From NCBI RefSeq assembly GCF_003334765.1, contig NZ_QOWT01000049.1: a stretch of 20,747 nucleotides of DNA. One strand, written 5' to 3'. The DNA comes from Escherichia coli (GTDB lineage Bacteria > Pseudomonadota > Gammaproteobacteria > Enterobacterales > Enterobacteriaceae). Positions 15,697 to 16,157 of the stretch are shown in pieces; position 1 is the stretch's first letter, and each line of letters opens with the position of its first letter. The notes below the pieces were generated by a model. It had not been told where the DNA came from. It saw nothing but the letters and a program-made list of their open reading frames with translations, and searched no databases. Position numbers and translations under genes: made by a program.

Positions 15697-15789
15697 CCAC
15701 TTCAAGTAGCGAATGATGATGTTTATATGGGGGGACTGGCGCAAGCAGAGAACTTTAAGAAAAATCACATGAGTTGAGTCTGTCATAAT

Positions 15790-15826
15790 GGAGTATCTCA
15801 TCAGATACTCCTTCTTTATCTATTTT
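15790..15826 (+). terminator. Intrinsic terminator-like hairpin just outside the IS911 right end
   Basis: Perfect 9-bp stem ggagtatct / agatactcc with 4-nt loop (catc), followed by ttctttatctatttt. Confidence 0.4.
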
Positions 15827-16157
15827 GTAAGAGCCAAAATAGATAAATTATGTTACGCATAACCAGCTCATTTAAACTATCTGGTCTGTTTCCTGCGGTT
15901 CTACAAAAATAGATAGGGGTGCACCTACGTTACCAATACTGGCATCATGGCTACATACGGCGGTCAGTTTACGCTTACGATCTGGCAGCCTGAGTTCACA
16001 GATAAAACAATCTCCAGGAAACCCGGGGCGGTTCAGTTCACAAAAACACATTAATGCAGTAACTATATTTTCCTTTCTGGTGATAACGTCGGGTTATCAT
16101 TAGCTTCTTCAGCTATTTTACTTTTATATCCCTTGTAAACATCATGGAGAATCCATA

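Follow-up and report, generated by a model that had tools for sequence, protein, structure and literature searches.

The window, by which we mean the whole 20,747-nucleotide stretch of Escherichia coli DNA that was analysed, carries a SPATE gene preceded by IS remnants and, further upstream, by a defence island (Table 1). The gene, which starts at 16158, was called vat in the original prediction, made from the sequence alone; its best match is instead pic of enteroaggregative E. coli (EAEC) strain 042, in which it is so annotated, and we reject the vat identity and correct the name to pic, in a locus of the EAEC 042 type. Segment 15650-16200 of the window is 99.8% identical to the 042 chromosome, and bases 15979-16157 are 100% identical to that strain. 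One IS30 copy of RefSeq 042 is missing from the window, producing an offset of 1220 bp, so that the window is closely related to the reference 042 assembly without being that assembly itself. At 15895 it carries a private SNP (G, where BEN2908 and EC974 have C, and where RefSeq 042 also differs), and G16511, within pic, is a second single-base difference from RefSeq 042. Two ORFs lie antisense within pic (17736-18269, 177 aa, and 18273-18458, 61 aa, both on the minus strand) and correspond in position and strand to the ShET1 enterotoxin genes setA/setB, which have been reported within pic on the complementary strand (PMC2808357); no NCBIfam model matched either ORF.

The upstream defence island comprises five large genes on the plus strand (1918-12699), with strong matches to PADLOC models; NCBIfam models were also used. 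Between this island and the region immediately preceding pic lies an IS graveyard (12700-15704) made up of IS3-family fragments, an IS110-family transposase gene and an IS911-like 3' fragment. The IS110-family gene (14295-15371) is intact and reads towards pic, as does the IS3-family fragment. Together with the remnant of a type I restriction gene that follows the graveyard, the five-gene island places pic beside a decayed defence island.

Table 1. Features of the window from the defence island to pic, with the source of each assignment
Feature	Position	Strand	Source or remark
SNF2 helicase, DrmD/BrxH type	1918-4785	+	PADLOC
IetA AAA-ATPase	4787-5791	+	PADLOC
IetS subtilase	5801-8188	+	PADLOC
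Type III restriction-modification Mod	8198-9826	+	PADLOC
Type III restriction-modification Res	9829-12699	+	PADLOC
IS3-family 3' remnant (IS911/ISEc52-like), right terminal repeat ending ...TTGACCACTTCA at 15704	15388-15704	+	RefSeq
Type I restriction R-subunit gene (hsdR), last 24 codons including TGA, IS-truncated	15706-15777	+	RefSeq pseudogene
Terminator-like hairpin with T-tract (9-bp stem, 15790-15811)	15790-15827	+	Terminator scan, folding
Second hairpin, 13-bp A/T-rich stem	15815-15847	+	Folding (dG -11.2, z -3.9)
IS66-family left-end remnant, 64 bp, terminus ...GTTTACGCTTAC at 15978	15915-15978	-	Alignment A3
Probable chance ORF, 35 codons	15947-16054	+	Spans IS66 remnant, IS1203 remnant and native pic DNA
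IS1203/IS629-type (IS3 family) right end, 57 bp	15979-16035	+	Alignments A1, A2
CRP site GGCGGTTCAGTTCACA	16027-16042	+	PMC9387333
Upstream -10-like element TATATT	16064-16069	+	Little used in EAEC; main -10 in UPEC picU (PMC9387333)
Functional -10 TAACGT (16084-16089) with TG at 16081-16082	16081-16089	+	PMC9387333
pic transcription start (A16096) and 62-nt 5'UTR	16096-16157	+	5'RACE; Shine-Dalgarno GGAG at 16146-16149
pic, serine protease autotransporter mucinase	16158-20276	+	GTG start, 1372 aa

The 450 bp upstream of pic are a patchwork whose breakpoints were obtained by pairwise blastn against the loci of other genomes (15704/15705, 15978/15979 and 16035/16036-38) and confirmed by three alignments (A1, A2 and A3), in which sequences diverge after one and the same base in five to seven independent contexts. 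The IS3-family remnant that bounds the patchwork on its left is annotated by RefSeq in 042 as an "integrase core domain" pseudogene, and 15650-15707 matches IS3-family/ISEc52 ends elsewhere; it is called IS911-like after the right inverted repeat of IS911. The block that follows (15705-15914) derives from hsdR and holds the last 72 nt of the gene and the gene's own 3' flank, with two hairpins. Over 274 bp, 15705-15978 is 98.5% identical to the end and 3' flank of the intact hsdR of APEC BEN2908, and many genomes with the matching segment annotate hsdR there.

Two further IS ends separate this block from pic. The IS66-like stretch adjoins IS66 tnpA in four loci (L023, L024, L025 and L005, one of them an O157 genome) and diverges past an identical terminal base in five contexts (alignment A3); its identity to tnpA-adjacent sequence and its GTAAGCG terminus mark it as an IS66-family terminal repeat, GTAAGCG being the canonical terminus of the family. 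The next remnant consists of the right inverted repeat and the last five transposase codons (TGA at 15991-15993) of an IS1203/IS629-type element. It is 98% identical to such elements over its 57 bp, its end, ...GGGGCGGTTCA, falls on the same terminal base (...GGTTCA) in seven independent contexts, and the flanks diverge after 16035, as is proper to a terminal repeat. Full-length copies of 1308-1310 bp occur in CFT073 and in one other locus (L011), and copies of this length sit exactly at the position of 15979-16035 upstream of pic in O111:H21 15A and in B-1109; in O104:H4 and O121 this position is taken by copies that a group II intron divides. The element directly upstream of pic is broken by the intron (ltrA) in O104:H4, O121 and cM8a (L007, 883-2391; L010 and L012, 2070-3452), and in two of these three the intron is itself split by IS421. 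No target duplication flanks the she-type IS copy, which has AAC to its left and GTT to its right. Native pic DNA begins at 16036, and from 16036-16038 onward the sequence is homologous to the region upstream of picU in CFT073 (83% over 262 bp).

Much of this patchwork also occurs apart from pic. At least 80% of 15705-15924 is present at 97-99.5% identity in about 150 genomes, and about 220 complete E. coli genomes contain the hsdR/IS66 scar, which in most of them does not adjoin pic. Among the 43 genomes that carry an EAEC-type pic promoter, the scar with its hairpin precedes the gene in just 15, the hairpin being absent from the other 28 and from all picU loci. The module formed by the hsdR 3' flank, the IS66 end and the 57-bp IS1203 end (15787-16035) is likewise found without pic in many genomes, as in EC974 (L003, 2501-2749), where it stands next to mcrC/mcrB. 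Its commonness apart from pic indicates that recombination at IS1203 ends probably gave rise to the 042-type arrangement around pic. Position 16010, within the IS1203 remnant, is polymorphic (A/C), both variants being found in 042-type contexts.

The hairpin within the hsdR-derived block is present as originally described, with its 9-bp stem and T-tract evident in the sequence, the terminator scan and the predicted fold. Its stem pairs GGAGTATCT (15790-15798) with AGATACTCC (15803-15811) around a CATC loop and is followed by the T-rich tail TTCTTTATCTATTTTG (15812-15827); the scan returned nine pairs, a 4-nt loop and six T within the next eight bases. Folding of the hairpin gave a dG of -12.6 kcal/mol and a z of -3.4, with none of 200 shuffles as good, which is above chance. 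A second hairpin, missed in the original prediction, uses the T-tract of the first as its 5' arm. It differs from the BEN2908 sequence only by an A to G change at 15818, which would keep the pair as G-U (the partner, by inspection, being T15844).

The position of the first hairpin points to its origin. It starts 13 nt after the TGA of the hsdR remnant and stands unchanged behind the intact hsdR of BEN2908, the same terminator sequence serving in BEN2908 a complete gene that in the window has been cut to 24 codons. It thus combines a stable stem-loop and T-rich tract with a location just 3' of a gene and conservation with that gene, the features of an intrinsic terminator. As judged from these sequence properties, it is the native terminator of hsdR, and would have been inherited as such, rather than an insulator specific to the pic promoter, the role first proposed for it and one that its absence from 28 of the 43 EAEC-type loci speaks against. 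It could still halt transcripts that enter from the IS110 and IS911 remnants, although only as an incidental effect of its origin, and the hairpin region may have a modest effect on pic expression.

The sequence nearest to pic is of a different kind. The pic promoter was reportedly studied by Behrens et al. in 2002. Its characterisation in EAEC 042, Shigella flexneri 2a and O104:H4 comes from one paper (Alhammadi et al. 2022, Virulence 13:1393; PMC9387333), in which promoter function was followed mostly with plasmid fusions in E. coli K-12. The fragment cloned there, 167 bp of DNA preceding the pic Shine-Dalgarno sequence, was sufficient for promoter activity, longer fragments giving, as the authors state, similar expression (PMC9387333); the primers place it at 15979-16145 of the window. 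By 5'RACE and KMnO4 footprinting, transcription starts 61 bp 3' of the centre of the CRP site, and the sequence printed in Fig S1, TAACGTCGGGTTa, identifies the start as A16096 (PMC9387333). TAACGT was established as the functional -10 by KMnO4 footprint and by loss of activity in the p14C/p11C mutant, and activation was found to be of Class I, dependent on CRP and its AR1, from delta-crp, the p58A/p56C mutants and CRP HL159; Fis represses the promoter through several targets in the 167-bp fragment (PMC9387333). The listed mutant positions (-58, -56, -55, -52, -31, -14 and -11) all fall on the expected bases of the window. The CRP site matches seven of the ten positions of TGTGA-N6-TCACA, and its centre at 16034.5 lies at -61.5 from the start, so that both site sequence and spacing are those of a Class I CRP-dependent sigma-70 promoter. 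The EAEC 042 promoter is the same DNA as that in the window, with nothing functionally different, and pic transcription starts at A16096 from TAACGT, with CRP activating from -61.5 and Fis repressing, as the published experiments demonstrate. The regulatory part of the region, 15979-16157, is therefore already known as a published CRP/Fis-controlled promoter. A 2025 CRP ChIP-seq study of strain 042 in mid-log LB has no listed peak around the pic promoter (at about 4,929,081); it has one at set1A +48.5, which corresponds to about 18230 of the window. In vivo occupancy of the pic promoter by CRP may be weak or dependent on conditions. Promoter activity is highest in minimal medium.

We put at about 90% the probability that the 450 bp upstream of pic are a scar of mobile elements and a defence gene that ends in a short, characterised pic promoter, and are not a transcribed leader. 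The original prediction had treated the whole of this DNA as a regulatory leader of the SPATE gene, comprising an insulating hairpin, AT-rich DNA subject to silencing or thermoregulation, and possibly a leader peptide. Several observations agree with it. The terminator-like hairpin is on the correct strand, 3' of the IS110 gene and the IS3-family fragment that read towards pic, and the two tracts described are truly AT-rich: 15820-15900 has 34.6% GC and 16060-16140 has 32.1%, against 48.6% for the whole window, placing them in the lowest 2.6% and 1.3%, respectively, of all 81-bp windows, as might be expected of a xenogeneic promoter silenced by H-NS. Pic has been reported to be thermoregulated, the promoter is subject to Fis repression, and there are H-NS sites for pic, predicted in silico only, at -159, -109 and -35 from the start codon. 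The main text of the H-NS paper on strain 042 makes no mention of pic, and we found no 042 H-NS data for the gene. Against a leader of this length stands the published start site, which leaves a 5'UTR of only 62 nt, and the sufficiency of 15979-16145, to which longer fragments add little by the authors' account. The hairpin, the distal AT-rich tract and the start of the proposed leader ORF all belong to the scar shared by about 220 genomes, 15 of which have it beside pic, and all are missing from 28 of the 43 EAEC-type loci. A transcription start mapped close to the gene, with hairpin and ORF not conserved, was the outcome that the original prediction itself named as telling against a leader, and it is what was found; we regard the leader as quite improbable. 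What stands of the proposed action of nucleoid proteins is the effect of Fis on the proximal promoter region, the distal tract being hsdR/IS66 scar. An Rfam scan of 15400-16400 returned only a sub-threshold AfaR match on the IS66 remnant (19.9 bits, with the gathering score at 100; E = 0.67). The original prediction had vat of UPEC as its model: in the account of Nichols et al. 2016 relayed in PMC6956023, vat is under H-NS/VatX control, and it shares with pic a SPATE product, an island location and AT-rich upstream DNA. Pic is nevertheless a different gene, has no vatX-like regulator downstream, and has CRP and Fis as its demonstrated regulators.

The short ORF fares no better than the rest of the leader. 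It is present, with the translation originally given and coordinates that had been one base off (ATG at 15947, TAA at 16052-16054). It lies upstream of A16096 and overlaps the CRP site, and so cannot be a leader peptide on pic mRNA; nor is there a Shine-Dalgarno sequence before its ATG, the upstream bases being ACGTTACCAATACTGGCATC, and it is not conserved with pic: all picU loci, and 28 of the 43 of EAEC type, lack its first ten codons. Nor is it a vestige of the transposase reading frame, an idea that was rejected because the transposase stop at 15991-15993 is in another frame. Two ORFs of at least 35 codons are observed in the 453 bp, where Markov-1 simulations give 1.9 +/- 1.2 (P = 0.62), which bears out the other option first offered for this ORF, namely noise; it is most simply read as a chance reading frame across three junctions. 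That it encodes a real small protein, whether transcribed from a promoter of its own or by read-through, is barely credible: although it begins with ATG and remains intact in 042-type loci, it crosses three unrelated fragments, its length is that expected by chance, it has no ribosome-binding sequence, it comes after the hsdR terminator, the polymorphism at 16010 changes Ile to Leu, and its beginning is lacking in most of the pic loci. A somewhat better case, though still an unlikely one, can be made for post-transcriptional control by the 62-nt 5'UTR, whose fold might act as a translational brake or thermosensor. In the predicted structure UUCUUCA (16105-16111) pairs with the Shine-Dalgarno region UGGAGAA (16145-16151) and 16097-16102 pairs with 16156-16161, which includes the GUG start. 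The same fold is obtained for transcripts of 80, 105 and 135 nt, ensemble pairing amounts to about 75% for the Shine-Dalgarno sequence and about 95% for the start codon, the anti-Shine-Dalgarno segment lies inside an insertion specific to the EAEC allele, and Pic, as noted, is reported to be thermoregulated. Countering this, folding of 16096-16161 (dG -12.5) has a z of only -2.05, with five of 200 shuffles as good, and the sequence does not vary (at least 99% identity in the 43 complete genomes, with the six listed all at 100%), so that it offers no covariation. The published work, moreover, found constant translation efficiency among picp042 derivatives and an EAEC transcript free of inhibitory structure (PMC9387333). 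The Shine-Dalgarno sequence and start codon are predicted to be paired, as in an RNA thermometer, but such pairing would melt between about 30 and 42 C, and in silico it stayed unchanged from 25 to 42 C.

With the scar and its short promoter as the preferred reading, 15705-15978 amounts to debris of insertion sequences and a restriction gene for which nothing indicates a role, and neither the hairpin nor the ORF should be annotated as a pic regulatory element. The end of the IS1203 remnant falls within the CRP site, to which its inverted repeat contributes the final 9 bp, 16027-16035 (GGCGGTTCA); TCACA (16038-16042) is native. Within the site, TCACA alone is shared with picU of UPEC CFT073 (TGTAACAGACATCACA) and picC of Citrobacter rodentium (TGTTAACTGAGTCACA); the distal half-site is GGCGG, from the IS repeat, where picU and picC have TGTAA or TGTTA (the UPEC sequence matching 16027-16037 is TGTAACAGACA). 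Both -10 hexamers and the position of the CRP site are common to EAEC pic, picU and picC; the DNA further upstream of picU and picC is unrelated and not derived from an IS, and the 5'UTR of the EAEC allele contains two short insertions relative to theirs. The EAEC-type promoter was found in 43 complete genomes, and the IS-end junction likewise in 43, as well as in eight of eight metagenome contigs and one MAG contig, so that no EAEC-type allele without the IS end was seen in this set. An IS1203 origin for the upstream half-site has apparently gone unreported; the main text of PMC9387333 does not mention an IS origin for the start of the cloned fragment or for half of the site.

Since the more distant picU and picC keep a TGT.A half-site, the ancestral distal half-site was, on the simplest reading, lost together with all the DNA upstream when an IS-associated rearrangement put other sequence in their place. 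A particular route, IS-mediated adjacent deletion from an arrangement like that of CFT073, is not supported. The IS1203-like copy of CFT073 is a separate one, 958 bp upstream of picU, with its own 3-bp target duplication (ATG); it is only 94.7% identical to the she-type copy, and the left flanks are unrelated. The promoter boundary of the EAEC/Shigella pic cassette is an IS1203 end within the CRP site.

CFT073 picU is activated mainly as a Class II promoter from the upstream -10, whereas EAEC pic is Class I. It is possible, if on balance doubtful, that the IS-derived half-site and the IS DNA preceding it matter functionally, and that exchanging a strong ancestral half-site for it weakened CRP binding and so led EAEC and Shigella to Class I activation and the downstream -10. 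The junction lies inside the site in every EAEC-type locus examined, the match to consensus is nine of ten positions in UPEC and seven of ten in EAEC, and the authors of the promoter study call the cause of the EAEC bias towards Class I "unclear" (PMC9387333). GGCGG retains both G positions of the TGTGA consensus, and the missing ChIP-seq peak fits a weak site, although it proves nothing. Other features weigh against the idea: the published point mutations are all in the native half-site or downstream (PMC9387333), the native TCACA may account for nearly all of the CRP dependence, and the two promoters also differ between their -10 elements (TTTCT and GCCCG) and in the 5'UTR, which could equally explain the choice. 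If true, the chimeric site would account for the different activation classes of two nearly identical promoters, a question left by the 2022 authors, and we regard it as a modest, testable lead.

IS ends are known to form hybrid promoters, for example through the outward -35 elements of IS1, IS2 and IS3-family ends. The pic promoter resembles these in having a terminal repeat directly beside a resident promoter, with part of the recognition sequence coming from the repeat; it differs in that the IS end replaces half of a CRP site (-69 to -61) and not a -35. The IS end probably weakens the pic promoter rather than creating it. We offer only tentatively the reading of a hybrid promoter in EAEC, Shigella and O104:H4, in which a right end of IS1203/IS629 type would have cut the ancestral operator in two, weakened CRP binding and shifted activation from Class II, the mode of picU and picC, to Class I.

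The DNA just past the right end is A-rich in several independent IS1203-type insertions (GTTCACAAAAAC, GTTGAAAAGAAA, GTATAAAAACAG and ATGAGAAAG), as seen when the right flanks at 16036-16047 of the window and at four other loci (L006, L008, L009 and L004) are compared. Similarity that appears to run past the IS end in other genomes was rejected as homology, being a spurious BLAST extension through A-rich target sequence. These A-rich flanks may hint at a target preference of IS1203-type elements.
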